Shown here: piece by piece, positions 1 through 18,807 of the stretch
Numbering within the stretch: the stretch's first letter is position 1
Layout of the letters: each line of letters begins with the position of its first letter
DNA from: Tepidanaerobacter sp. GT38
Lineage (GTDB): Bacteria; Bacillota; Thermosediminibacteria; Thermosediminibacterales; Tepidanaerobacteraceae
DNA: 24,000 nucleotides
Reading direction: 5' to 3'
Assembly: GCF_021991635.1 (NCBI RefSeq)
Contig: NZ_JAFFJA010000050.1
Location: 52,324 to 76,323, forward strand
Translations under genes and position numbers: made by a program
The notes under the pieces: generated by a model
Seen by the model: the letters and a program-made list of their open reading frames with translations, nothing else
Databases searched by the model: none
What the model was told of the DNA's origin: nothing

Positions 1-522
1 CCCAAAATTCTTTCCATAGTAAAAGAAGTCCCTGAAACCTTTTGCGGCTGCCCCTATCGAATCAGTATTATAGTTATTGTTTACAATCTGTGCTATACCC
101 CTTGCAATAGTCATAGTTCCAAGGGTTGCAATAAATGGAGGCAACTTACAGTTTGCAACGAGCTGACCATTTATAATTCCAATGGCTAAGCAACATATAT
201 ATGTAATTAACACAGCAACCCAAGGATTTACGCCTTTCGTCATCATTGTGGCAGAAACCATGCAGCTCATGCCAACTACAGAACCAATGGAGAGGTCAAT
301 GTTGCCAGTAATTAATACGTAGGATTGACCTATGCCAATTATTAGAATCGGTGCAATCTGGCGTAACAAATTCGCAATATTTCTGTTTGAGAAAAAAACT
401 GGATTTAATATTCCAAACACAATGCACAAAACTACAAGACCAAAAGCTACTGTAATTACCTGTCCCATTCCTCTTATAGCCATTATTTTTCTTAATATGT
501 TTTTATCATCTCTCTTTTTCAT
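1..522 (-). CDS. Sugar ABC transporter permease (RbsC/MglC-like, CUT2 family), 5' part only; runs off the left edge of the window
   Basis: Not in the ORF track because there is no stop in the window. My own translation from ATG at 522-520 gives MKKRDDKNILRKIMAIRGMGQVITVAFGLVVLCIVFGILNPVFFSNRNIANLLRQIAPILIIGIGQSYVLITGNIDLSIGSVVGM...PPFIATLGTMTIARG, open to position 1. The TGxIDLSxGS and PPFIxTLG(T)M motifs are typical of ribose/galactoside-type permeases. SD GGGGAG lies 6 nt upstream. The gene sits 52 nt downstream of the ATPase. Confidence 0.8.
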   Translation of the reverse strand, partial: MKKRDDKNILRKIMAIRGMGQVITVAFGLVVLCIVFGILNPVFFSNRNIANLLRQIAPILIIGIGQSYVLITGNIDLSIGSVVGMSCMVSATMMTKGVNPWVAVLITYICCLAIGIINGQLVANCKLPPFIATLGTMTIARGIAQIVNNNYNTDSIGAAAKGFRDFFYYGKNFG

Positions 523-574: not shown

Positions 575-2068
575 TTACTTTTCAAATTTCGTTGCATATT
601 CCATGATCATGTTTTGTGTGGCATGTTCAATATCCAACTCACCGGTAATTCTACCATTACACATTACAAGTATTCTATCGCTCATGCCTAAAATCTCCGG
701 CATTTCCGAAGAAACGAATATCACACCTATTCCTTGCTTTTTTAAATCGTTCATTAGATTATAAATCTCGACTTTCGCTGCAACGTCAATTCCTCTTGTA
801 GGCTCATCAAATATTACTACCCGCGAATTCCTAGCTAGCCATTTACTTACTACTACCTTTTGTTGATTACCTCCTGAAAGGCTATCAGTTACCACGTCAA
901 TATCTGGCAACTTAATTTTTAAATCTTTTACCATCTTATTTGCAATTGCTTTTTCTTCGTTTTCGTCTACAATCCCACATGATTTAGAAAGAAAATCTAA
1001 ATTTGGCAGAGCAATATTTTCTCTTACACTTAACTTTGTGCACAAACCGTCTCTTTTTCTATCTTCCGGCACCAAAACTATGCCAGCATTAATTGCATCT
1101 ATTGGCTTATTTATAGTTACAGATTTACCATCTAGGATAATTTCGCCGGATTCTTTCGGTTCCGCACCAAAAATTGCACGTGTTGTCTCTGTCCGACCAG
1201 CTCCCATAAGACCGGCTATCCCTAAAATTTCACCTTCATATAGCTCAAAATTAATATTTCTTACTAGCCTGCCCGCATTTAAATTTTTAACTTCGAATAT
1301 TTTTCCCCCTCTTTTTACGTTAACTCTAGGAAATTTCTGTTTTATTTCGCGACCCACCATGTTGGATATGATTTCCTGCAAAGTAGTTTCTGCGTAATTC
1401 ATTGTTGTTATATATCTACCATCTCGCATAATAGTGACGCGATCCACGATATGTTGTAATTCTTCCAAACGATGAGAAATATAGATTATTCCACAACCTT
1501 CTCCTTTTAATTTTCTTATAATCTTAAATAAATCATCAATCTCTTTTTCAGATAATGCAGAAGTAGGTTCATCCATTATCAGTATTCGCGAATTTGTAGA
1601 AAGAGCCTTGGCAATCTCTACTAACTGCTGTTTTGAAACAGGCAAATTGCCAACAATTTCATCCGGTGAAATATCAATATTAAGCTTATCAAGAATACAT
1701 TTGGCCTCTTTACTCATCTCCTTACTTGATAAAATTCCCATCTTAGTTATTTCTCGACCCAAAAATATGTTTTCGGCTACCGAAAGATGCGGACAAAGAT
1801 TTAATTCCTGGTGAATTATAGCTACACCCAATTGTTGTGCTTTTTTCGGCGTCAATTCTGTAACCGTATCCCCAAAAATTTTAATCTCACCGCTGTCCGC
1901 AGTATAAACACCACTTAGCACCTTCATTAATGTGGATTTACCTGCGCCATTTTCCCCTAGCAGTGCATGAACTTCTCCCGATTTTAGATTGAAAGATACA
2001 TCATCTAATGCTTTAACTCCCGGAAAAGTTTTATTAATGTGTTCCATTTCAACAATGTATTCTTGCAT
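575..2068 (-). CDS. Sugar ABC transporter ATP-binding protein with two fused NBDs (RbsA/MglA/XylG-like, CUT2 family)
   Basis: Both halves carry canonical motifs: Walker A GENGAGKST and GLMGAGRT, Walker B ILIMDEPT and VVIFDEPT, signatures LPVSKQQ and LSGGNQQK. The track start GTG 2077 lies inside the SD (AGGTGG). ATG at 2068 (MQEYIVEMEHINKTFPG) follows the SD by 5 nt and is the probable start. Confidence 0.9.
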   Translation of the reverse strand: MQEYIVEMEHINKTFPGVKALDDVSFNLKSGEVHALLGENGAGKSTLMKVLSGVYTADSGEIKIFGDTVTELTPKKAQQLGVAIIHQELNLCPHLSVAENIFLGREITKMGILSSKEMSKEAKCILDKLNIDISPDEIVGNLPVSKQQLVEIAKALSTNSRILIMDEPTSALSEKEIDDLFKIIRKLKGEGCGIIYISHRLEELQHIVDRVTIMRDGRYITTMNYAETTLQEIISNMVGREIKQKFPRVNVKRGGKIFEVKNLNAGRLVRNINFELYEGEILGIAGLMGAGRTETTRAIFGAEPKESGEIILDGKSVTINKPIDAINAGIVLVPEDRKRDGLCTKLSVRENIALPNLDFLSKSCGIVDENEEKAIANKMVKDLKIKLPDIDVVTDSLSGGNQQKVVVSKWLARNSRVVIFDEPTRGIDVAAKVEIYNLMNDLKKQGIGVIFVSSEMPEILGMSDRILVMCNGRITGELDIEHATQNMIMEYATKFEK

Positions 2069-2176
2069 AAATACCACCTAGTTATAGGTTTTTGTTTGAT
2101 ATGATTTGTGCTATTGTTTATATAGTTTTTATTGCGTAATTATTTATAATTAACATACCAATATATAACTTCTGAT

Positions 2177-2215
2177 AAAAGGGGGGAATTTTTGGATTTA
2201 TGGGGGTTTTTTTAG
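2177..2215. promoter_or_regulatory. Two phased G-run/T-run blocks (AAAAGGGGGGAATTTTTGG and TTTATGGGGGTTTTTTTAG) in the intergenic region upstream of the ABC ATPase; candidate response-regulator binding sites
   Basis: The G-runs start at 2181 and 2202, a 21 bp offset, in otherwise G-poor AT-rich DNA. They lie about 105-135 nt upstream of the ATPase start and 35-70 nt downstream of the pseudo-ATPase stop. The function is inferred only. Confidence 0.25.
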
Positions 2216-2247
2216 AAATGTTCAGATGAGTATTTCAGAGGTGTTTA

Positions 2248-3696
2248 TCATAGATTGGCTCGTAAATAGGAAAACTTCTCACTAGAATATTGTTTTTGCA
2301 GCCTTCCTTGTTCTATGACCATTAAACGGTTTGCTACAACAAGGCAATCAGATATACTAACTGCTAAAATAATCACTGTTATATGCTTTTTTCTCAATTG
2401 ATCAATTAGCTGTACCAAATGATGCCTATGATACATATCTGCATCAGAAAAGGGTTGTATTAAAATAACAATGTCAGGCTTATAAAGATGAACCCTATAG
2501 TACACTAAATTATATAAAGATTTGGGCGTTAAATTTTTTATATCGCTTGCATAAATATCTTCACCGATTAATTTCTCATATTCTTGAATTACACTTTTTT
2601 GGATATTTTTCATTGGACACCAGAAAGATAGTTTCTTGTTTGCTAGAAAACATAAATTATCGATATAACTCATTTCTTTAAATAACATACTTTGAATTGG
2701 ATTTTCTTGAATGAAACATATATTGTTTTTTAAATGTTTTAGGGTTTTAGTGTAATTTACTCCTTTAAAAAAAATTTGACCAGATAATGGTTTTATTTCT
2801 CCATTAATTAATTCTATAAAATCAGTTAAAACAGTATTGTTCATATCTAAAAAAACTACACATTCACCTTTTTGTATAGTGAAACTCAAATTCTTTATAT
2901 TATCTGTTGAAATATTTTGGAATTTTAATATACCATTTTCACTTTCTCTAGAAACTAACGGAAAGTCAATATGGCTAAAATCAAGGCTAAAAGAAGCAAT
3001 CACCTCATCTCGAAATTCACTTTTATTTAATACCTTAATTACTTTCCCATTTTTCATTATTGAAATTCTATCACATATTTTAAAAGCTTCTTCATGATGA
3101 TTACAGATATATAAAAAGGATATTCCTTGTTTTGTATAATATCTAATGATTTTATGAATTTTTTTTAAATCTGCCGTGCTTATAAAATTGCTAATATCTC
3201 GAATAACGATTAATTTAACCTTTGCTACAATAGCCTTTAAAATTTCCACAACGCACTTTTCAAAAGGTGACAAATTGAAAACTAATTCATTGCCGTCTAT
3301 CGAAATATTTAAGTCTTTTGTAAGTAATTTCAATTTAGCATTTAGAAAATTAGAATTAATTAAGTATCCTTTAAAACCTTTACTGATTACAAAAATATTG
3401 TCCACCACAGTTAAGTTTTCTACTAAACGACTTTGTCTTTCAATTACAGCAACCGGATTGTAACTCATAGAACTGTGTTCATAATTGTTAACCATGTTTT
3501 CTTCTAAATAAACATGACCATAATGTATGGGAACGTTTTGACAGAAAAGTTTGATAAGTGCTTCTTTGCCATGGTCGTTTAAGCATAATAGTCCCATAAT
3601 TTCTCCTTTAAAAATGTGCATGCTAAAATTATCTAAAACGGTTACACCATCAATAATCTGAGTTACTCTCTCTAACCTAAAAATTTCTTGTTTCAT
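2248..3696 (-). CDS. Degenerate tandem-NBD ABC-ATPase-like protein (paralog of RbsA/MglA-type ATPases with all catalytic motifs lost)
   Basis: The 482 aa protein is colinear with the neighbouring 497 aa ATPase. Walker A-1 is CLNDHGKE (vs GENGAGKS) and Walker B-1 is VIRDIS (vs IMDEPT). Walker A-2 is DMNNTVLT (vs GLMGAGRT), Walker B-2 is VILIQPF (vs VIFDEPT), and signature-2 is LTPKSLYN (vs LSGGNQQK). A good SD (AAGGTG, 6 nt spacer) lies inside the 3' end of the kinase gene, and the two genes overlap by 20 nt. Confidence 0.8.
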   Translation of the reverse strand: MKQEIFRLERVTQIIDGVTVLDNFSMHIFKGEIMGLLCLNDHGKEALIKLFCQNVPIHYGHVYLEENMVNNYEHSSMSYNPVAVIERQSRLVENLTVVDNIFVISKGFKGYLINSNFLNAKLKLLTKDLNISIDGNELVFNLSPFEKCVVEILKAIVAKVKLIVIRDISNFISTADLKKIHKIIRYYTKQGISFLYICNHHEEAFKICDRISIMKNGKVIKVLNKSEFRDEVIASFSLDFSHIDFPLVSRESENGILKFQNISTDNIKNLSFTIQKGECVVFLDMNNTVLTDFIELINGEIKPLSGQIFFKGVNYTKTLKHLKNNICFIQENPIQSMLFKEMSYIDNLCFLANKKLSFWCPMKNIQKSVIQEYEKLIGEDIYASDIKNLTPKSLYNLVYYRVHLYKPDIVILIQPFSDADMYHRHHLVQLIDQLRKKHITVIILAVSISDCLVVANRLMVIEQGRLQKQYSSEKFSYLRANL

Positions 3697-4762
3697 CTAT
3701 AGCACCTTCTGTTCTAAATATTCTGGGCAGAGTAATTTCTACATCTGTTCCTACATTTTCAGTGCTAAAAATATTAATACCGTATTGTTCTCCAAACAAA
3801 AGTTTTATCCTATTATTGACATTTATCATAGCAATTCCTGCTTTTTTTTCATCATCTGACTTCACATATTCAAAAGACTGTACATTGAGCTTTTCATTAA
3901 GTTCCATTAGGCGCTCTTCTTTCATTCCTATCCCATCATCAGAAACAGTAATTATTAATCTCTTGGGAGTGGTTTCAACCTTTATACGTACATGTCCTTT
4001 CCCCATCTTCTTTTCTATACCGTGAAAGATGGCATTTTCAACAATAGGTTGGAGTGTCAGTTTAGGCAACTGGTATTTTAGTACTTCATCTTTATTTTCG
4101 CTGTCAATTTCAATACTTAAACTAAGGCGTTCGCCAAAACGATATTGTTGAATATAATAATAATCTTCAATATTAGATAATTCATCCTCTAAAGTAACCA
4201 GATTATTATAATTAGAAATCGCGTACCGAAAAAATTTACCTAAAGCTTCAGCCATTTCAGCAATACTGTCTAAACCTGCTAGAATAGCCTCTCCTCGAAT
4301 TCCTTCCAAACTATTATATAAAAAGTGAGGATTGATTTGGTTTTGTAGAGCAAGGTACTGTGCTTGCTTTTTTGTAGCTTTCATAACTTCTTGCGTATTA
4401 TAAATTGCTTTAACTTTATTGATAACATCTTCCATTTCGGGGCTAAAAGGATATTGCAATTCAAACATTCCTTGTACCGTATAGCCTTTTACAAAAAGCT
4501 GCATTATTTTAGAAGTTTCTTTATACGGTATAAATAACCACCTATAAAACAAATATAAAGTGCCCAAGTATGCAAAATAGGGTACTATCAATAATAAAAA
4601 ATAAATACTTTGTGAATTACAATAAATTACAGTTAAAAAAATAAGAAGATAGGCTGATAAGACAATCAAAGCTACAATTATATAAAAAGCCCTGTAAAAT
4701 AAATACTTATTTTTATTCATAGCTCGATTTTCCATTCTAAGCATAAAGTTTTCTATATTCAT
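3677..4762 (-). CDS. Sensor histidine kinase, LytS/YesM family (His_kinase + HATPase_c), minimal form with two TM helices and no extracytoplasmic domain
   Basis: The H-box is LQNQINPHFLYNSLEGI, the N-box is QPIVENAIFHGIE, G1 is VSDDGIGM and the G2 region is AGIAMINVNNRI. The N-terminus has two hydrophobic helices (YRAFYIIVALIVLSAYLLIFLTVIY and IYFLLLIVPYFAYLGTLYLFY) joined only by CNSQS. The start is ambiguous (ATGs at 4762, 4744, 4735, 4720; none has a strong SD). The gene overlaps the end of the RR gene. Confidence 0.85.
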   Translation of the reverse strand: MNIENFMLRMENRAMNKNKYLFYRAFYIIVALIVLSAYLLIFLTVIYCNSQSIYFLLLIVPYFAYLGTLYLFYRWLFIPYKETSKIMQLFVKGYTVQGMFELQYPFSPEMEDVINKVKAIYNTQEVMKATKKQAQYLALQNQINPHFLYNSLEGIRGEAILAGLDSIAEMAEALGKFFRYAISNYNNLVTLEDELSNIEDYYYIQQYRFGERLSLSIEIDSENKDEVLKYQLPKLTLQPIVENAIFHGIEKKMGKGHVRIKVETTPKRLIITVSDDGIGMKEERLMELNEKLNVQSFEYVKSDDEKKAGIAMINVNNRIKLLFGEQYGINIFSTENVGTDVEITLPRIFRTEGAIDETRNF

Positions 4763-6344
4763 GAGGTTTCAGTCCCGTAAGCCGCTTAAAAGTTTTTGTA
4801 AAATGCTTTAGGTCGTTATATCCAACGGTTTGGCAAATATCAATGGTGCTCAAATTTGTTTCTTTTAATAATTCTTTAGCCTTGTTTATTCTAATTTCCG
4901 AAAGATATTCCGTAAAATTTTTTCCGCTTTCTTTTTTAAATAAGGCACTAAAATACGACTCATTAAACCCAACAAATTCACTAACTTCTTTTAAAGTTAT
5001 ACGATGCATATAGTTTTGATGAATATATTCTTTTGCCATCAATATCGGTTTAATATCAGCTTGAATTTTTTCTTTTATAATAACATCTATAATTTTACTT
5101 ATAGATTCAGACAAACAAATAAACAATTCCCATACAGAACTACATAGATCAGCTCGTAAATAAAAAGTCGAATTAGAATCTTCAATTTTATCTACGTCAA
5201 ATTGAAAATTTCTAATCGATCTTAAAAACAAACTAAATATATCGATAACTAAATTAAAAACTTCCTGGCCAAAAACATTTGTTTTTCTTAAAACTTGATG
5301 CCTAAGAAAATCTATTTCTCTAACGACACCATCTTTGTCTAAAATTTCTAGTGAGGTTTCCAATTTTTTAATAGTGTCACCAAAAAGGACCTTTAAATCA
5401 GAATATACTTTCGGCTGAAAACCTTCAAGTATTTTCCCAGTTCCTTCTACCAAACGTTGTTTTATTGCCCATTCAGCTGTTTTAAGAGAATGTTTTATCT
5501 GGCATATGTCATTTACTGCCTCTCCACGACCTATCGTCACTTCTTTAGTACAAAATAAGTTTTTTTGTACAAGTATCTCATCTAGACTGCATTTTAGTTT
5601 TTTTCGTATGTTTTTTTTATTCTGCTCTCCATAGTTTAACATACAATATACTCTGCTATTTTTTAAGTAAATTTCCATGTCAAAACAGTCTGATATTAAC
5701 TTTTCCCTTAAGATGTGTGAAATTTTTTGTTTTAGAATCTGTATGTTCCCATAAGATTCATTATGTTCGTAATCTAGTTTAACTACTAGCACTTCAAAAA
5801 TGCCAGGGCAGAAATGAAAATAGTAGTTCTTATTTACTTCATCAATATTAAAATTAATTTGATTAACTACATCTTCTAACAAATCATTTAAAAAGCTAGA
5901 ACGTAATTTTTCTGCATTGTTTTGTAGACTAAGTCGCAGCTGTTCTTGTACAGTATTGTGTTCTGTTTTTTGTTTATGTTTTTTACGGATATTGTTTAGA
6001 GTAGTAATAAGTTCTTTTTTGTTAATGGGCTTTAACAAGTAATCGCTAACTCCATATTTTATAGCGCTTTGAGCATATTCAAAATTACCATAACCACTTA
6101 TTATGATAAAATCTATATTTTTGTTTATTTGCTTGCCTTGCTTAATCACTTCCAACCCATCATAACCAGGCATACGAATATCTGTAATCACTATATCAGG
6201 CTTTAATTTTCTTATTAACTCTAATGTTTCTAAACCATTATTTGCAATCCCAACTACTTCCATATCCATAGACTTCCAATCAATTAAACCAAAAATCAGT
6301 TGACACACTTTCACCTCATCATCTGCAATAATGACTTTAATCAT
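4737..6344 (-). CDS. Two-component response regulator, YesN/AraC family (N-terminal receiver + C-terminal AraC-type HTH)
   Basis: Receiver motifs are ADDE near the N-terminus, the phospho-acceptor context IVITDIRMPG, and YLLKP. The C-terminus has a double HTH typical of the AraC family (LKEVSEFVGFNESYFSALFKK...ICQTVGYNDLKHFTKTFKRLTGLKPHEYRK). SD GAGGGG lies 8 nt upstream of the ATG. Confidence 0.9.
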   Translation of the reverse strand: MIKVIIADDEVKVCQLIFGLIDWKSMDMEVVGIANNGLETLELIRKLKPDIVITDIRMPGYDGLEVIKQGKQINKNIDFIIISGYGNFEYAQSAIKYGVSDYLLKPINKKELITTLNNIRKKHKQKTEHNTVQEQLRLSLQNNAEKLRSSFLNDLLEDVVNQINFNIDEVNKNYYFHFCPGIFEVLVVKLDYEHNESYGNIQILKQKISHILREKLISDCFDMEIYLKNSRVYCMLNYGEQNKKNIRKKLKCSLDEILVQKNLFCTKEVTIGRGEAVNDICQIKHSLKTAEWAIKQRLVEGTGKILEGFQPKVYSDLKVLFGDTIKKLETSLEILDKDGVVREIDFLRHQVLRKTNVFGQEVFNLVIDIFSLFLRSIRNFQFDVDKIEDSNSTFYLRADLCSSVWELFICLSESISKIIDVIIKEKIQADIKPILMAKEYIHQNYMHRITLKEVSEFVGFNESYFSALFKKESGKNFTEYLSEIRINKAKELLKETNLSTIDICQTVGYNDLKHFTKTFKRLTGLKPHEYRKLYA

Positions 6345-6451: not shown

Positions 6452-6481
6452 ATAATAAAAATGAATAGTTTGATTTGTCAA
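6452..6481 (-). promoter_or_regulatory. Candidate sigma-A promoter of the RR-HK-pseudoATPase operon
   Basis: On the minus strand a perfect -35 TTGACA (6481-6476) is followed after 17-18 nt by TTATTA/TATTAT. It lies about 110 nt upstream of the RR start codon. Confidence 0.4.
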
Positions 6482-10845: not shown

Positions 10846-10875
10846 AATATATCACATATTAACCTTTACTGTCAA
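10846..10875 (-). promoter_or_regulatory. Sigma-A promoter of the infC operon; its -35 box overlaps the thrS stop codon
   Basis: On the minus strand TTGACA (10875-10870) is followed by 18 nt and then TGaTATATT, an extended -10 (10851-10846). The thrS stop TGA (10874-10872) lies inside the TTGACA. Confidence 0.55.
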
Positions 10876-12782
10876 TTAAATTTTGAAGTTAATGATTTTA
10901 CTTCATCAATAAAGGATTCAATAGATTTTTGCCCAATATCGCCTTTTTCCCTCACCCGCACAGAAACAGTATTTTCTTCTGCTTCTTTATCGCCCACAAT
11001 TAACATATATGGAACTTTTTGCATCTGTGCTTCTCGTATTTTGTAGCCTATCTTTTCGTTTCTTTCGTCAAGCTCTACTCTGATACCAGCTTCCTCCAAG
11101 CGGTGTTTTACTTTGCGGGCATAATCCATGTGTTTTTCACTAATAGGCAGTATTCTGGCCTGAACAGGAGCCAGCCAAACCGGAAAAGCACCGGCAAAAT
11201 GTTCTATCAATATCCCGATGAACCGTTCTATACTGCCGAAGATAACGCGGTGAATCATAACTGGGCGATGTTTTTCTCCATCAGGACCAATATACGTTAA
11301 GTCAAAGCGCTCTGGCATCTGGAAGTCCAACTGTATGGTGCCGCACTGCCAGGTCCTTCCTATACTATCCTTTAAGTGAAAATCTATTTTAGGACCGTAA
11401 AAAGCGCCATCGCCTTCATTTATTTTATATGGCATACCTTTTTTTTCTAGGGCTTTTTGCAAGGCATTTGTTGCCTGCTCCCATAGCTCGTCAGAGCCCA
11501 TGGAGTCTTCAGGTCTTGTGGAAAGCTCTACATGATATTCAAAGCCAAATATTTTGTAGACATAATCAATTAAATCTATTACACCTATTATCTCTTCCTC
11601 TATTTGAGAAGGCATCATAAATATGTGTGCATCATCCTGGGTAAAACAGCGTACTCTCATGAGCCCATGCAATACCCCTGACTTTTCGTGCCTATGGACA
11701 AGCCCAAGTTCCCCCAATCTTATGGGTAAATCCCTGTAACTGTGTGAAGCAGTTTTATACATGAGTATGCCGCCAGGGCAGTTCATGGGCTTTACTGCAT
11801 AATCCAATTCATCTATTTTAGTAAAGTACATATTCTCCTTGTAGTGGTCCCAGTGGCCTGATCTGCGCCAGAGCTGTTCATTTAATATGATGGGTGTTTT
11901 TATCTCCTGATAACCCCGTTTTTGATGCTCACGGCGCCAAAAATCAGTCAATATATTCCATATCACCATGCCCTTTGGATGGAAAAACGGAAAACCTGGC
12001 CCTTCCTCGTGAATGCTGAAAAGATCGAGTTCTTTGCCCAGTTTGCGATGATCGCGCTTTTTAGCTTCTTCAATTCTGACAAGGTATTCTTCCAGCATGG
12101 ATTTTTTGGGAAAAGATATGCCGTAAATCCTTTGAAGCATCTTATTGCGTTCATCGCCTCTCCAGTAAGCGCCAGCAAGGCTTGTCAGCTTAAAGGCTTT
12201 TATTTTGCCCGTAGAGGGAATATGAGGACCTGCACAAAGGTCTGTAAACTCTCCCTGTTTATAAAAACTTATGTTCGCCTCTTCTGGAAGTTCCTCAACT
12301 AATTCTACTTTATAAGGCTCATTTTGGTTTTTCAAATGATTTAAAGCTTCTTGCCTTGAAATATCTTCCCGATAAAAAGCATAGTCTTCTGCAACTATTT
12401 TCGCCATTTCCTGTTCTATTTTCTCAAGATCAGATGGAGAAAAGCTTTCCTCCCTGTCAAAATCATAATAGAAGCCTTCGTCAATAGCAGGGCCAATAGC
12501 GAGCTTTACTTCCGGAAATAGTCGCTTTACCGCCTGAGCCATTACATGAGATGTGCTGTGCCAAAATACTTTGCGGCCTTCTTCATCGTCAAAAGTCAGT
12601 ATTTCAACCTGGCAATCGTCTTGGACTTTGTAGCTTAAATCTTTTACGACTCCGTCCACTTTGGCAGCCAGGGCCTCTTTTCCCAGCTTCTTGCTTATAT
12701 CTTCGGCAATTTCAAACAATGAAATACCCTTCGGATATGTTTTTTTAATTCCATCTTTTAATGTTACCTGTACTTCGTTCAT
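10872..12782 (-). CDS. thrS: Threonine--tRNA ligase
   Basis: The 636 aa protein has a TGS domain at the N-terminus, the editing-domain motif WHSTSHVMAQA, class II core motifs (FRREHQKRGYQEIKTP, GLMRVRCFTQDDAHIF, QCGTIQLDF) and an anticodon-binding C-terminus. A Thr T-box leader lies upstream. Confidence 0.97.
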   Translation of the reverse strand: MNEVQVTLKDGIKKTYPKGISLFEIAEDISKKLGKEALAAKVDGVVKDLSYKVQDDCQVEILTFDDEEGRKVFWHSTSHVMAQAVKRLFPEVKLAIGPAIDEGFYYDFDREESFSPSDLEKIEQEMAKIVAEDYAFYREDISRQEALNHLKNQNEPYKVELVEELPEEANISFYKQGEFTDLCAGPHIPSTGKIKAFKLTSLAGAYWRGDERNKMLQRIYGISFPKKSMLEEYLVRIEEAKKRDHRKLGKELDLFSIHEEGPGFPFFHPKGMVIWNILTDFWRREHQKRGYQEIKTPIILNEQLWRRSGHWDHYKENMYFTKIDELDYAVKPMNCPGGILMYKTASHSYRDLPIRLGELGLVHRHEKSGVLHGLMRVRCFTQDDAHIFMMPSQIEEEIIGVIDLIDYVYKIFGFEYHVELSTRPEDSMGSDELWEQATNALQKALEKKGMPYKINEGDGAFYGPKIDFHLKDSIGRTWQCGTIQLDFQMPERFDLTYIGPDGEKHRPVMIHRVIFGSIERFIGILIEHFAGAFPVWLAPVQARILPISEKHMDYARKVKHRLEEAGIRVELDERNEKIGYKIREAQMQKVPYMLIVGDKEAEENTVSVRVREKGDIGQKSIESFIDEVKSLTSKFN

Positions 12783-13030
12783 AATACCCCTTCCTTTACC
12801 TTTATGTTACATTATGTTATTCAAAAAGCCTCTCATCCCTAAGGGACGAGAGGCTTTCCCGTGGTTCCACCCTAATTTGAACTCATTAGCTTTTAAGGCT
12901 TGCAGCCGTAAAACTCCGAGGTGGTCTTCGGCTTAGTTTTCCCAGGGCTTTTCCAGCTACCGGCCCCTCTCTGAGGGAAAAATCATAAGCTTACTCTTCT
13001 CATCATAGTTTTTTGTAACTATAGAATTTT
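12783..13030 (-). promoter_or_regulatory. T-box riboswitch leader (threonine specifier ACU) with terminator/antiterminator
   Basis: The minus strand has a GA/K-turn motif GATGAGAAGAGTA, an AG-box CAGAGAG, and a distal loop GGTAGCTGGAAA. The specifier loop GGGAAAACTAAGC carries ACT (plus 12935-12937) followed by A. The T-box sequence AAATTAGGGTGGAACCACGG lies at about 12860-12879. It is followed by a 12-bp terminator GCCTCTCGTCCC-TTAG-GGATGAGAGGC (12828-12854) plus TTTTT. Confidence 0.85.
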
Positions 13031-15095: not shown

Positions 15096-16466
15096 GTGAT
15101 ATCAATGGCAGAGATGATAACACTACTTATCTTTGCCTGTGTGCTGTTTGTCTGTATACTGAAAGATTTTTCAATATTAGTTGCACTGTTTTTGGGTCTC
15201 ATATGCTTTGTTTTTTATTCACTGTACAGAAAATACACATATGCGCAAATAGGTAAAATGATTTTAAATGGCATTAAGGAAGCAAGAACAATTCTCATAG
15301 TATTTTCATTAATAGGAATGCTAACTGCTCTTTGGCGGGCTGGTGGGACAATTCCATTTATAATCTATCATACACTTTTGATGGTTGATTCACGGTTTTT
15401 TGTCATGTTTGCCTTTCTTTTGTGTTCACTGGTTTCTTTTTTAACAGGAACAGCTTTCGGAACAGTCAGCACCATGGGAATAATTTGTATGATTACAGGC
15501 AAAGCATTAGGTATATCTCCTTTTTATCTTGGGGGAGCTATTTTATCAGGTGTTTTTTTTGGCGACAGGTGTTCTCCCATGTCTACCAGCGCACTGCTGG
15601 TTTGTGAACTGACCGGAACTGATATCTACACTAACATAAAAAACATGATAAAAACTTCGGCTTTTCCTTTTATATTTACAGTCGCCTTTTATGCAATTAC
15701 CGGATATGTGGGCATTAGCAGCAATGTAACAACTGACACTGTGGCTGTTTTTGCGGATAATTTTAATTTAAGTCCCTGGGTAATACTGCCTGCTCTTATA
15801 ATTGTGGTACTCGCGATTTGCAAATACAATATCAAAGTGACAATTGTTTGGAGTATCATATTCGGCATTTTTATTTGCCTTTACTTTCAGGAGATGAGCT
15901 TGTACGAACTTTTTAAGTGTTTAATATACGGCTATCATACGGAAAACTTGACACTTGCCAAGTTAATAAACGGTGGAGGACTTATATCCATGGCAAAAAC
16001 TATGGCAATAATCGCAATTTCTTCATCCTATTTTGGTATCTTTCGCAACACAAAATTGCTCGACCGAATAAAGCTTTGGAGTAATACCATAGCCCAGCAC
16101 AGTACAAAGTTTGCTACGGTGTTAATTATTTCAATAATTACCGCAGCGTTTAGCTGCAATCAAACTCTTGCAACAATGTTGACTTATGAAATAGCGAATA
16201 ATCTAATTTCCGACAGAGAACAATTAGCTGTTTATCTGGAAAATACAGTTATATTAGTGAGTGCCCTTATTCCCTGGAGTATTGCTGCTGTATTTCCAAT
16301 TTCAACTGTAGGTGCTCCAACAAACTCCATAACTTATGCAGTTTATCTGTACCTTGTCCCTCTGTGGAATCTTTTCATTTCATTTATGAATCCTAAAGAT
16401 AAAAGGGCCGGACTTTTAAACTCAGTAAGGAGGAAATGTCATGAGAAAACAGCTGAACTTCGATAA
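15096..16466 (+). CDS. NhaC-family membrane transporter (MetT-like candidate methionine/sulfur amino acid transporter)
   Basis: Polytopic membrane protein with Na+/H+ antiporter NhaC-family sequence character (GTIPFIIY, FLTGTAFGTVSTMG, GAILSGVFFGDRCSPMSTSA). The track start GTG 15087 lies inside the SD AGGTGA (15085-15090). GTG 15096 (5 nt spacer) or ATG 15105 is more likely. The 3' end overlaps metH by 26 nt. Confidence 0.75.
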   Translation: MISMAEMITLLIFACVLFVCILKDFSILVALFLGLICFVFYSLYRKYTYAQIGKMILNGIKEARTILIVFSLIGMLTALWRAGGTIPFIIYHTLLMVDSRFFVMFAFLLCSLVSFLTGTAFGTVSTMGIICMITGKALGISPFYLGGAILSGVFFGDRCSPMSTSALLVCELTGTDIYTNIKNMIKTSAFPFIFTVAFYAITGYVGISSNVTTDTVAVFADNFNLSPWVILPALIIVVLAICKYNIKVTIVWSIIFGIFICLYFQEMSLYELFKCLIYGYHTENLTLAKLINGGGLISMAKTMAIIAISSSYFGIFRNTKLLDRIKLWSNTIAQHSTKFATVLIISIITAAFSCNQTLATMLTYEIANNLISDREQLAVYLENTVILVSALIPWSIAAVFPISTVGAPTNSITYAVYLYLVPLWNLFISFMNPKDKRAGLLNSVRRKCHEKTAELR

Positions 16467-18807
16467 TTTTATTATCTTCGATGGAGCCATGGGCACCATG
16501 CTTCAAGCCTTTGGAATGGGAGCCGGAGAACTGCCGGAAAGCTATAATTTCACTCATCCGGATATTATAGAATCTATTCACAGCAAATACCTGGAAGCCG
16601 GTGCAGATGTTATAACTACCAACACATTCGGAGCTAACCGATTTAAACTTAAAGGTTCAGGATTTGCTGTAAAAGATGTGGTTGCTCAGGCGGTTAACAT
16701 TGCCCGTAGGGCATCGAAGGAAAAATGGGTGGCACTGGATATAGGACCAACCGGAAAGCTCATGAAACCCCACGGCGATTTATCTTTTGAGGATGCATAT
16801 ACTGCTTTTTCCGAACAAATCATGGCAGGAGAAGCGGCGGGAGCAGACGTAATCCTCATAGAAACCATGTCAGATATATATGAAGCTAAAGCCGCTGTCC
16901 TGGCAGCTAAAGAAAACAGTAAGCTTCCAGTAATATGTACCATGACCTTTCAACAGGACGGTAGGACTTTAACAGGTACAGATGTCCTTACAATGGTCAA
17001 CATCTTACAGAACTTAGGCCTTGACGCACTAGGAGCAAACTGTTCCCTTGGCCCAAAGGAAATTCTGCACTTGGTAGATGAATTGGTGCGGTATTCTAAA
17101 ATACCGGTAATTATTCAGCCAAATGCGGGACTTCCTAAAATCCAAGACGGTAAAACTGTTTACGAAATAGAACCACAGGAATTTTCCCTTTATGCCAAAG
17201 CAATGGCACAAAAAGGTGTTACAATACTGGGCGGATGCTGTGGCACAACACCGGAGCATATTAGAGCCGTAAAAAATGTGCTTTGGGGTTTTAGTCCCGG
17301 AAAAAGAAATGTTGTGGATTTTACGGCGGCTAGTTCCTATTCTAAAACCGTAATTTTGACAGAGGGCATAAGCATAATTGGTGAAAGGATAAACCCCTCG
17401 GGAAAGCCCAAAATGAAGCAGGCCCTTAGAAACCGCACCTACGATTACATACTTAAAGAAGCCATAAAGCAAAGGGATGCAGGAGCTAAAATTATAAATG
17501 TAAATGCAGGCCTTCCGGAAATAGACGAAAAGCAAGCCATGATTGAGCTGGTGACAAAACTGCAAGGCGCTGTTAATTCTCCCCTGATGTTTGATAGCAC
17601 AAAACCACAAGTATTAGAAGCAGCATGCAGGATCTACAGTGGAAGACCTATAATAAACTCGGTAAATGGCAAGGCAAGTTCAATGGAAGCCATTTTGCCC
17701 ATAGCAAAAAAATACGGAGCCTGTGTAATCGCCATGACTTTAGACGAAACGGGCATTCCTGAAACCCCGGAAAAAAGGTTAAAAATAGCAGAAAAGATCA
17801 TTGAAACAGCAACAGCCTACGGTATCCACAAAAATGACATTATCGTTGACTGCCTTGTGCTTGCGTCTTCAGCCGAACAAGAGGCGGCTGCCCAAACCAT
17901 TAAGGCATTACAACTTATCAAAAAGGAGCTAGGAGTTTTAACAATTCTCGGAGTCAGCAATATTTCCTTTGGTTTACCAAACAGGTCATTATTAAACCGA
18001 ACTTTTTTAGCAGCTGCCCTCGGCGCTGGACTTGATCTTCCAATTATAGATCCATTGGATTTGGAAATGATAAAGACAATAGACGCATTTAATGTGCTTT
18101 CAGGCCATGATAAAAATGCAGATCATTACATCAGCACCTATGCAAAATCTGCTGACATTACAAATGTAGAAAAAATAGATAGACCCGATTTAAAATCAAT
18201 TATCTGTGAGGGGTTAACGGATGAAGTTAAGCCTGCTATTGATGAGCTGTTAAAACAAAAATCTCCCATGGAAATCGTAGATGGGATCTTAATCCCTGCA
18301 CTAGATGATGTAGGTAAGAAATTCGAAACCGGCGAAATCTTCCTGCCCCAGATGATAATGTCAGCTGAAACTGCAAAGACTGCCTTTCAGATAATAAATT
18401 CTTATACTAAAAGCACCGAACAAAACACTTCTTATATCAAAGGCAAGATACTGCTGGCCACCGTCAGAGGCGATATTCATGAAATTGGAAAAAATATTGT
18501 CAAAGCAATGCTGGAAAATTACGGCTACGAAGTAATTGATCTTGGAATAGATGTGCCGGAACAGGAAATTGTAGAAAAGATAAAACAGGAAAATATCCGC
18601 CTTGTTGGATTGAGCGCACTCATGACAAGTTCGGTAAAAAGCATGGAAGATACTATCAAAGCCATAAAACTTAATGGCATTGACTGCAAGGTTATGGTGG
18701 GTGGTGCTGTGTTAAATCCTGAGTATGCAAACATGATTGGTGCTGATTACTATGGAAAAGACGCTCGCGCTGCTGTAGAGATAGCCCAAAAGGTTTTTCA
18801 AGCCTAA
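16441..18807 (+). CDS. metH: Cobalamin-dependent methionine synthase, short form (Hcy-binding + pterin-binding + B12 cap + B12-binding domains; no AdoMet reactivation domain)
   Basis: The N-terminal homocysteine S-methyltransferase domain has Zn ligands C201 (GANCSLGP) and C266/C267 (GGCCGTTPEHI). The pterin-binding region contains IGERINPSG...INVNAG...GVSNISFGLP. The B12 motif DxHxxG is GDIHEIGKN (D678/H680/G683, nt 18472-18489), with SALMT and VMVGGA. Strong SD AAGGAGG. The protein ends at 788 aa, whereas I recall E. coli MetH at 1227 aa. Confidence 0.92.
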   Translation: MRKQLNFDNFIIFDGAMGTMLQAFGMGAGELPESYNFTHPDIIESIHSKYLEAGADVITTNTFGANRFKLKGSGFAVKDVVAQAVNIARRASKEKWVALDIGPTGKLMKPHGDLSFEDAYTAFSEQIMAGEAAGADVILIETMSDIYEAKAAVLAAKENSKLPVICTMTFQQDGRTLTGTDVLTMVNILQNLGLDALGANCSLGPKEILHLVDELVRYSKIPVIIQPNAGLPKIQDGKTVYEIEPQEFSLYAKAMAQKGVTILGGCCGTTPEHIRAVKNVLWGFSPGKRNVVDFTAASSYSKTVILTEGISIIGERINPSGKPKMKQALRNRTYDYILKEAIKQRDAGAKIINVNAGLPEIDEKQAMIELVTKLQGAVNSPLMFDSTKPQVLEAACRIYSGRPIINSVNGKASSMEAILPIAKKYGACVIAMTLDETGIPETPEKRLKIAEKIIETATAYGIHKNDIIVDCLVLASSAEQEAAAQTIKALQLIKKELGVLTILGVSNISFGLPNRSLLNRTFLAAALGAGLDLPIIDPLDLEMIKTIDAFNVLSGHDKNADHYISTYAKSADITNVEKIDRPDLKSIICEGLTDEVKPAIDELLKQKSPMEIVDGILIPALDDVGKKFETGEIFLPQMIMSAETAKTAFQIINSYTKSTEQNTSYIKGKILLATVRGDIHEIGKNIVKAMLENYGYEVIDLGIDVPEQEIVEKIKQENIRLVGLSALMTSSVKSMEDTIKAIKLNGIDCKVMVGGAVLNPEYANMIGADYYGKDARAAVEIAQKVFQA

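Follow-up and report, generated by a model that had tools for sequence, protein, structure and literature searches.

The 24,000-nucleotide stretch of Tepidanaerobacter sp. GT38 DNA analyzed here (the window) carries, at positions 2248 to 3696 of the minus strand, a gene for a protein related to the tandem ATP-binding cassette (ABC) ATPases of CUT2 sugar importers. The motifs for handling ATP have been replaced in both of its nucleotide-binding domains (NBDs), and the gene belongs to the operon of a two-component system. The protein, termed the pseudo-ATPase below, is probably a functional, non-catalytic input or accessory partner of the histidine kinase encoded immediately upstream, and we infer that the two bind physically. 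This reading draws on the loss of motifs, purifying selection, a conserved gene triad, a conserved operator, apparent co-evolution and natural fusions to the kinase. A further step, in which the pseudo-ATPase docks on the adjacent importer to read its state, is proposed more tentatively.

Fold and loss of the ATP-handling motifs

A first-pass annotation, made from the letters alone, had described an intact open reading frame (ORF) of 482 codons with its own Shine-Dalgarno sequence. Both descriptions were borne out: the ORF opens with ATG and is preceded by GAAGGTG, 6 nt before the start. The gene, its two halves and the neighbor used for comparison are as follows.

2248..3696 (minus strand): pseudo-ATPase gene, encoding a 482-residue tandem-NBD protein; intact ORF with ATG start, collinear with the neighbor and with XylG/RbsA models
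2992..3696 (minus strand): NBD1-like half, residues 1 to ~235, with Walker A CLNDHGKEA, Walker B LIVIRDIS, H-loop region ICNHHEE and signature region NLSPFEKC
2248..2934 (minus strand): NBD2-like half, residues ~255 to 482, with Walker A LDMNNTVLT, signature LTPKSLYN, and Walker B and D-loop IVILIQPFSDADMYHR
575..2068 (minus strand): canonical tandem ABC ATPase of the CUT2 type, every motif intact (Pfam, NCBIfam, BLASTP)

BLASTP joined the pseudo-ATPase to the neighboring ATPase in a single collinear alignment over residues 1-473 (23% identity, E 2e-39). Its full length also aligned to the NCBIfam models of XylG, RbsA, AraG and MglA (E 1e-47 to 5e-39), at scores far below the equivalog cut-offs (163 bits against 699 for XylG and 159 against 745 for RbsA); the neighboring catalytic ATPase scored 605 bits. 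The Pfam ABC_tran model matched weakly, with 57 bits compared with 191 for the neighbor. Structure prediction, which the first-pass annotation had suggested as a check, returned a tandem ABC-ATPase fold. The AlphaFold2 model has a pLDDT of 79.9 and a pTM of 0.78, and the corresponding part of a natural kinase fusion (P0005, described below), modeled from a deeper alignment, reached pLDDT 90-97. The top Foldseek matches were tandem NBD proteins, among them the DppD/OppD fusion found in mycobacterial importers (TM-score 0.6-0.7). A sequence search of the PDB with the pseudo-ATPase gave single-NBD ATPases only (E ~1e-14) and found no solved CUT2 tandem ATPase. The window protein is identical to an NCBI protein (P0001) from a Thermoanaerobacterales metagenome-assembled genome from a biogas digester, and the kinase encoded beside it matches a protein of Tepidanaerobacter sp. 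GT38 at 100% identity. In base composition, the interval 2001..3000, which covers the 3' half of the gene and the spacer beyond it, has a G+C content of 0.275 and a GC skew near 0, compared with 0.36 and -0.25 over the catalytic ATPase gene.

The BLASTP alignment to 575..2068 reproduced all of the motif correspondences that had been drawn by eye. Read from the neighbor to the pseudo-ATPase, GENGAGKST is replaced by CLNDHGKEA, ILIMDEPT by LIVIRDIS and ISHRLEE by ICNHHEE in NBD1; in NBD2, GLMGAGRT is replaced by DMNNTVLT, LSGGNQQK by LTPKSLYN and VVIFDEPT by IVILIQPF. One detail has to be amended. The P-loop glycines and the Ser/Thr of NBD1 had been called lost; the Ser/Thr are gone, but the third Gly and the Lys stay in the window protein (HGKEA, residues G43-K44).

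The extent of the loss was tabulated by aligning 78 pseudo-ATPase orthologs with 68 linked canonical ATPases. The canonical set keeps GENGAGKST, HQE, the signature, MDEPT, SHRLEE, GAGRTE, LSGGNQQ and FDEPT in 64-68 of the 68 proteins, and the pseudo-ATPase family keeps none of them. The residue equivalent to K44 is Lys in 41 of the 78 orthologs and Q, R or E in the others. At the Walker A Ser/Thr pair, Ser occurs in only 5/78 and 18/78, and Thr is not among the common residues. The Walker B of NBD1 reads IRD, with Arg or Lys in 59/78, and that of NBD2 reads IQP, with Gln in 74/78. LSPFEKC and LTPKSLY stand in place of LSGGQ-like signatures in the two halves, the H-loop His is replaced, and the A-loop aromatic (Phe) and the NBD1 Q-loop Gln have been lost family-wide too. 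With DMNNTVLTD at its Walker A position, NBD2 is devoid of a P-loop. The canonical neighbor is itself atypical in NBD2 (GAGRT, and SSE instead of an H-loop), so the ablation of this half is measured against an already unusual site. As the same substitutions are present in all 78 orthologs, the pattern is not a chance one. With the catalytic motifs gone in both halves, the protein is almost certainly not the ATPase that its annotation names and is predicted to be non-catalytic.

Family, conservation and selection

An NCBI protein search gave more than 560 homologs across Bacillota at 38-72% identity. The best 120 of these relatives are nearly all full length, are 47-72% identical to the window protein and come from Clostridia and Bacilli. 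Oscillospiraceae, Lachnospiraceae, Caproiciproducens, Mahella, Paenibacillus and Robertmurraya are represented among the relatives. The databases name the family "sugar/ribose ABC transporter ATP-binding protein" or "ATP-binding cassette domain-containing protein", and full-text literature searches found no published description of it. It is a real and widespread pseudo-enzyme family, apparently undescribed, although its theme of an accessory protein making a three-component system is already known in two-component signaling. A second, more distant subfamily at ~37% identity was also recognized (loci L082-L088: P0142, P0159, P0163 and P0164), in most members of which the Pfam ABC_tran match is weak or faint.

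On sequence grounds, the pseudo-ATPase is an ancient divergent offshoot of the CUT2 ATPases. A recent duplication of the neighboring gene was considered and rejected: the two proteins share only 23% identity, the neighbor is 70-82% identical to its own orthologs, and the pseudo-ATPase family spans both Bacilli and Clostridia.

Scanning one genome per species yielded a set of 79 loci. The ORF is intact in 78/80 loci from more than 30 genera. Split genes were seen on contigs of metagenome-assembled genomes, affecting the pseudo-ATPase and permease in L075, the regulator and pseudo-ATPase in L079 and the catalytic ATPase in L018; they are probably assembly frameshifts and not decay.

The positions of the former ATP sites are now occupied by new, near-invariant residues, for example HHEE and QPFxxADMxxR. 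Residues H200, H201, E202 and E203 of NBD1 are each present in 75-78 of the 78 orthologs, and H200, H201, E203, D284, P415, F416, A419, D420 and D450 each in 76-78. Conservation is slightly higher in the ex-motif columns than in the remaining protein (entropy 1.39 compared with 1.68 bits, p = 0.013), and their consensus equals the canonical residue at 10 of 64 columns. The dN/dS calculation that the first-pass annotation had called for was carried out by the Nei-Gojobori method on more than 20 close genome pairs. The pseudo-ATPase gave values of 0.05-0.17, with one pair at 0.28; in the same pairs the kinase and regulator ranged from 0.01 to 0.19 and the catalytic ATPase from 0.03 to 0.18. Selection on the gene is purifying, with values like those of its neighbors, and not neutral. 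The earlier suggestion of a retained non-catalytic role, as a scaffold or sensor, in place of decay is supported by these ratios, by the intact ORFs and by the conservation of the ex-motif columns. The sensor option is made concrete by the place of the gene, which lies in a two-component operon and not in the transporter operon.

The sensor operon and its conservation

On the minus strand the genes run in the order receiver-AraC regulator, kinase, pseudo-ATPase, a 179-nt A+T-rich spacer, catalytic ATPase and permease. The genes flanking the pair described above are as follows.

4737..6344 (minus strand): response regulator with a receiver domain and an AraC-type helix-turn-helix, YesN type (Pfam)
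3677..4720 (minus strand): histidine kinase with His_kinase PF06580 and HATPase_c, YesM/LytS type (Pfam); alternative start at 4762
1..522 (minus strand): 5' part of an RbsC-type permease (BPD_transp_2), which runs off the window

A binding-protein gene follows the permease outside the window (source contig L089). The start of the pseudo-ATPase gene overlaps the kinase stop by 20 nt, and the two genes abut or overlap in most loci. The pseudo-ATPase is not the ATPase gene of the transporter operon, which has a separate, intact ATPase gene of its own after a promoter and operator.

This arrangement is highly conserved. The kinase lies directly upstream of the pseudo-ATPase in 77/78 testable loci and the regulator upstream of the kinase in 76/77; His_kinase and HATPase_c domains in the kinase, and receiver and AraC domains in the regulator, were found in all loci examined. 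Downstream, a canonical ATPase follows in 74/76 loci, with the importer divergent or upstream in two more, and then come the permease (69/70) and binding protein (65/67). A reverse check started from kinase homologs in Defluviitalea and Caloramator, genera outside the locus set, and gave the same layout both times. The second subfamily retains the regulator-kinase-pseudo-ATPase triad while the sugar genes around it are shuffled, which marks the triad as the invariant unit. Its neighbors there (L082-L088) include genes for lyxose isomerase, a PfkB kinase, a GH92 mannosidase or arabinose/fucose isomerases. A "four-component" arrangement was briefly suggested by L082, in which an apparent binding protein alone follows the pseudo-ATPase; that gene opens with a LacI-type helix-turn-helix (MAATIKDIAKMTG), and it is a transcription factor.

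A kinase without an outside sensor domain

The kinase has two N-terminal transmembrane (TM) helices joined by a loop of ~5 residues in the window copy and of 3-6 residues across the family. Both helices are kept in every lineage, fusions included, and family alignment and hydropathy showed them to be hydrophobic with no conserved sequence. Pfam detected neither a sensor domain nor HAMP in the kinase, even at E <= 10. Immediately after TM2 lies a conserved cytoplasmic segment, PY.E..K.L.LF..GYT..G.F, and the 50-residue juxtamembrane segment is HAMP-like in length and helix-loop-helix pattern only. With a 3-6-residue loop and no sensor domain, the kinase, judged from its sequence, is unable to sense outside the cell alone. 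Its start is ambiguous: the longest ORF begins at 4762 (361 residues, overlapping the regulator gene), while the family alignment and one public gene call favor M15 at 4720 (347 residues).

Natural fusions link the two proteins directly. A kinase at the N-terminus is followed by a motif-less tandem NBD at the C-terminus in P0129, P0130, P0173 and P0005, and at least two additional lineages carry such fusions. P0005, a close relative, has a linker of 7 residues; P0129 and P0130, which come from two independent contigs, match the close fusion at 34% identity across 97% of its length, and P0173 is more divergent. At L081 the P0130 fusion (2367..5168) has no transporter adjacent, and genes for HAD-type hydrolases come next. 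Four apparent fusions (P0121, P0134, P0135 and P0136) were discounted as duplications or deletions that may be artefacts of assembly.

Distance matrices from 43 complete loci were also compared. The pseudo-ATPase correlated with the kinase at r = 0.90 and the regulator at r = 0.85, and with the ATPase, permease and binding protein at r = 0.60, 0.58 and 0.49, respectively. Partial correlations were 0.56 for the kinase, 0.46 for the regulator, -0.02 for the ATPase, -0.06 for the permease and 0.18 for the binding protein; these values, confounded as they are by rate class and shared operon history, weakly suggest that the pseudo-ATPase co-evolves with the kinase and regulator rather than with the transporter parts.

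The probable regulated promoter and operator

Three elements were recognized in the DNA around these genes.

2181..2216 (minus strand): tandem direct-repeat operator, TCTAAAAAAACCCCC ATAAA TCCAAAAATTCCCCCC, between the pseudo-ATPase and catalytic ATPase genes
2152..2160 (minus strand): extended -10 element TGgTATGTT, which starts 20 nt past the second C-run
6452..6481 (minus strand): putative housekeeping-type promoter (TTGACA, 18 nt, TATTAT) ahead of the regulator gene; a pattern match only, with no operator copy

The repeat has the consensus CaaAAaAaa..CCCc.taA.tC.AAA......CCCCTta. A strict form of the pattern was found in 53/74 equivalent spacers (29 kb), compared with 41 other matches in 2.9 Mb of locus sequence. 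The extended -10 element has the consensus TGCTATACT and is spaced 19-21 nt from the repeat in 46/53 loci. In Proteocatella, further operator copies lie ahead of lyxose-isomerase/DUF4432 operons. The pattern is absent upstream of the regulator genes. Nor was it found in the subfamily-2 loci, whose regulators presumably differ in specificity.

In systems of this kind, AraC-type regulators are known to act as activators from tandem repeats just upstream of the promoter (PMC8579813), and the response regulator is presumed to bind the operator here. The promoter match at 6452..6481 is preceded by a hairpin and T-run that end the gene for a SpoU-type methylase. Since its promoter is of the housekeeping type and no operator copy accompanies it, the sensor operon is apparently expressed constitutively and the importer on induction.

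Proposed mechanism

In the favored explanation, the pseudo-ATPase, long ago derived from a CUT2 (RbsA/XylG-type) ATPase, would act as an indispensable third subunit in a two-component system of the YesM/YesN type. Placed on the cytoplasmic part of the kinase, it would set the balance between kinase and phosphatase activity. As the kinase has membrane anchors but no outside sensor domain, the signal input is predicted to come from the pseudo-ATPase. Once phosphorylated, the AraC-type regulator would bind the tandem repeat over the -35 region and switch on the adjacent ATPase-permease-binding-protein importer and, in some species, lyxose/mannose-isomerase genes as well. To receive its signal, the pseudo-ATPase may take the NBD docking site under the permease dimer, replacing the real ATPase, and relay the docking of the sugar-loaded binding protein to the kinase, so that the whole would act as a transporter-coupled outside sensor.

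The docking step, and with it the nature of the signal, is put forward tentatively. It is suggested by the origin of the protein from a transporter ATPase, by the tandem geometry that it has kept, by the linkage to a CUT2 importer and by a kinase that is still anchored in the membrane. Docking would explain why the kinase retains this anchoring with nothing outside, it fits the general use of two-component systems to read external signals, and it has precedents in Pst-PhoU-PhoR and in the Bce modules (PMC4513084, PMC10314905).

Several observations weigh against this explanation. Against the docking step, some triads have no transporter in the 4-8 kb examined downstream (L052, L081, L082 and L087/88), and an orphan copy of the pseudo-ATPase in L023 (10001..11455), flanked by genes for isoleucyl-tRNA synthetase and an M42 peptidase, has no kinase, regulator or transporter nearby. 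The mirror-tree correlations, confounded as described, are weak evidence for the partnership with the kinase, and the AlphaFold2 model of the natural fusion P0005 (pLDDT 83.9, pTM 0.61), with a juxtamembrane pLDDT of 43-64, says nothing on the interface. Docking is also disfavored by partial correlations of ~0 with the permease and ATPase. Around the Q-loop and in the helix that follows Walker A, the consensus is unlike that of the catalytic ATPase, a protein that has to dock on this same permease. Moreover, the sensor operon, with its own promoter and no operator, would be made before the importer is induced. The explanation as a whole, docking included, is given somewhat less than an even chance.

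There is a broader possibility, with the balance somewhat against it, that the sensor-less kinase, together with the dead tandem NBD, represents a receptor of a new class, one where an ABC nucleotide-binding dimer has been turned into a ligand-sensing, transducing input module for a kinase. The two former ATP pockets would then have been rebuilt to recognize a sugar, or to read the permease without a nucleotide cycle. If so, this would be a type of input domain outside the current catalogs of two-component sensing.

Alternative explanations

The alternative that survives best, although unlikely, treats the pseudo-ATPase as a cytoplasmic receptor, an input subunit of the kinase that makes no contact with the transporter. 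The rebuilt pockets at the NBD1/NBD2 interface would bind an intracellular sugar or sugar phosphate, and ligand-driven opening and closing of the tandem would be passed to the kinase. The near-invariant new polar and aromatic residues (H200, H201, D284, N287, Y395, Q414, F416, D420 and D450) are what such pockets might require, but they could equally be inter-domain glue. Co-evolution with the kinase and regulator and not with the transporter parts, the triads and fusions without an adjacent transporter, and expression of the sensor operon independently of the importer all point the same way, as do the unconserved TM helices, which suggest plain anchors. Nevertheless, sugars in the cytoplasm are normally sensed by one-component regulators, the persistence of two TM helices in every kinase lineage would be left unexplained, and the linkage to the CUT2 importer is very tight (74/76 loci).

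Improbable by comparison is a role as a transport regulator, in which the dead tandem NBD vies with the catalytic ATPase for binding to the permease, or acts as a chaperone in assembly, and so serves as a brake or assembly factor. Homology to the transporter ATPase, the same tandem geometry and an adjacent importer in most loci would be expected of such a protein. Against this, the gene is coupled to that of the kinase in transcription and translation, and a promoter and operator separate it from the transporter operon. It is also fused to the kinase in several lineages, co-evolves with the kinase and regulator and is retained where the transporter is not adjacent.

It is very improbable that the protein is a non-canonical but active nucleotide binder, a slow ATPase or nucleotide sensor working through the shifted His (H200/H201), the Gly-Lys of NBD1 and acidic residues. 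The window protein does keep G43-K44, E202 and E203 descend from the H-loop helix of the canonical proteins, and the HH pair adjoins the old H-loop position. Nevertheless, the Lys is present in only 41/78 orthologs, NBD2 is without a P-loop, and the Mg2+-ligating Ser/Thr, the A-loop aromatic, both Walker B Asp-Glu pairs and both LSGGQ signatures are gone.

Decay of a duplicate, a pseudogene in the making, could be read from the heavy substitution at all catalytic motifs and the G+C content of 0.275 compared with ~0.36 for the neighbor, but it is excluded by dN/dS (0.05-0.17) and by ORFs intact in 78/80 loci and more than 30 genera, and is at odds with hundreds of full-length homologs and with invariant, family-specific motifs.

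Comparison with known systems

The pseudo-ATPase shares with the CUT2 tandem ATPases (RbsA, XylG, MglA and AraG) its fold, the order of its two NBDs, its length, a collinear alignment and the presence of a CUT2 permease and binding protein next door. It differs from them in having no ATP motifs in either half, in scoring ~160 bits against cut-offs of ~700 and in sitting in a two-component operon. By fold and ancestry the protein is a CUT2 tandem ATPase, but without the catalytic motifs and outside the transporter operon it should not be filed as a transporter ATPase.

Two well-known systems offer partial parallels. The kinase of PstSCAB-PhoU-PhoR lacks a periplasmic sensor and follows the state of an ABC importer on its cytoplasmic face, by way of the ATPase and an adaptor protein. 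That adaptor, PhoU, has no relation to ABC ATPases, and PstB is an active enzyme. In UhpC-UhpB-UhpA, a paralog of a transporter component that does not itself transport senses on behalf of a kinase, which in turn induces the real transporter; UhpC is an MFS permease and not a nucleotide-binding subunit.

In its workings the system resembles XylFII-LytS/YesN, CuaD-CuaSR and HptRSA of Clostridia and Staphylococcus, which likewise combine a PF06580 kinase and a receiver-AraC regulator with a third gene for a paralog of a transporter component. In these binding-protein co-sensor systems the sensor operon is constitutive and its target is the adjacent sugar ABC importer, reached through tandem repeats (PMC3656788, PMC10384115, PMC8050422, PMC8579813). 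Their paralog is an extracellular binding protein, however, and an outside domain of the kinase receives this co-sensor, whereas in the window system the paralog is a cytoplasmic tandem-NBD ATPase and the kinase has no outside domain.

The Bce modules, such as the flux-sensing BceRS-BceAB, resemble the window system in their kinase, which has two TM helices, a minimal outside loop and a tie to the adjacent ABC system. A Bce kinase cannot sense alone; it depends on the ABC system encoded alongside, which it also induces (PMC4513084, PMC10314905). In a Bce module the transporter is active and exporter-like, with an FtsX-type permease and a catalytic BceA, the kinase contacts the permease in the membrane and the regulator is of the OmpR type. 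The window system, by contrast, has a binding-protein-dependent importer with a BPD_transp_2 permease, an AraC-type regulator and a dead ATPase paralog within the sensor operon. In Caloramator quimbayensis (L092, 1..4033), a Bce-type module consisting of an OmpR regulator, kinase, ABC ATPase and FtsX permease lies immediately upstream of the triad.

A hint of the sugar concerned comes from enterohemorrhagic Escherichia coli. On its island OI167, the LmvK/LmvR two-component system induces the lmuKAIZYX genes for a CUT2 mannose/lyxose importer, a D-lyxose/D-mannose isomerase and a fructokinase, which together form a mannose/lyxose pathway (PMC10128022). As in that system, a lyxose isomerase, sometimes with a PfkB-type kinase, recurs beside many triads: a D-lyxose/D-mannose isomerase gene adjoins the module in 10/80 loci and 3/4 subfamily-2 contexts, and a PfkB kinase or GH92 mannosidase is found alongside in individual loci. 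From these isomerase genes and the pathway precedent, a mannose- or lyxose-like sugar is a plausible signal for many members. Near the window's own copy, no lyxose-isomerase-type gene is visible on the source contig. The likeness does not extend to the sensors, which are not homologous: LmvK is a hybrid kinase with HAMP, LmvR is an OmpR-type regulator and there is no pseudo-ATPase.

The label of transporter ATP-binding protein is almost certainly wrong for this family, and it inflates transporter counts in hundreds of Firmicutes from gut, soil and digesters. The triad is a natural experiment in what an ABC NBD dimer does without ATP, and in how kinases that lack a sensor domain come by their signal. 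Alongside the binding-protein co-sensors of Clostridia (XylFII and CuaD) it would place a cytoplasmic equivalent, which bears on sugar sensing in biomass-degrading and gut anaerobes. The operator-promoter together with the three-gene sensor could serve as a portable sugar-inducible switch for Firmicutes.

Other features of the window

Two features elsewhere in the window were recorded. The gene at 16441..18807 (plus strand) encodes a MetH methionine synthase of 788 residues with homocysteine-, pterin- and B12-binding domains, in which Pfam finds no C-terminal reactivation domain. A T-box leader (Rfam RF00230, 99 bits) is located at 12839..13015 (minus strand), upstream of the threonyl-tRNA synthetase gene at 10872..12782.

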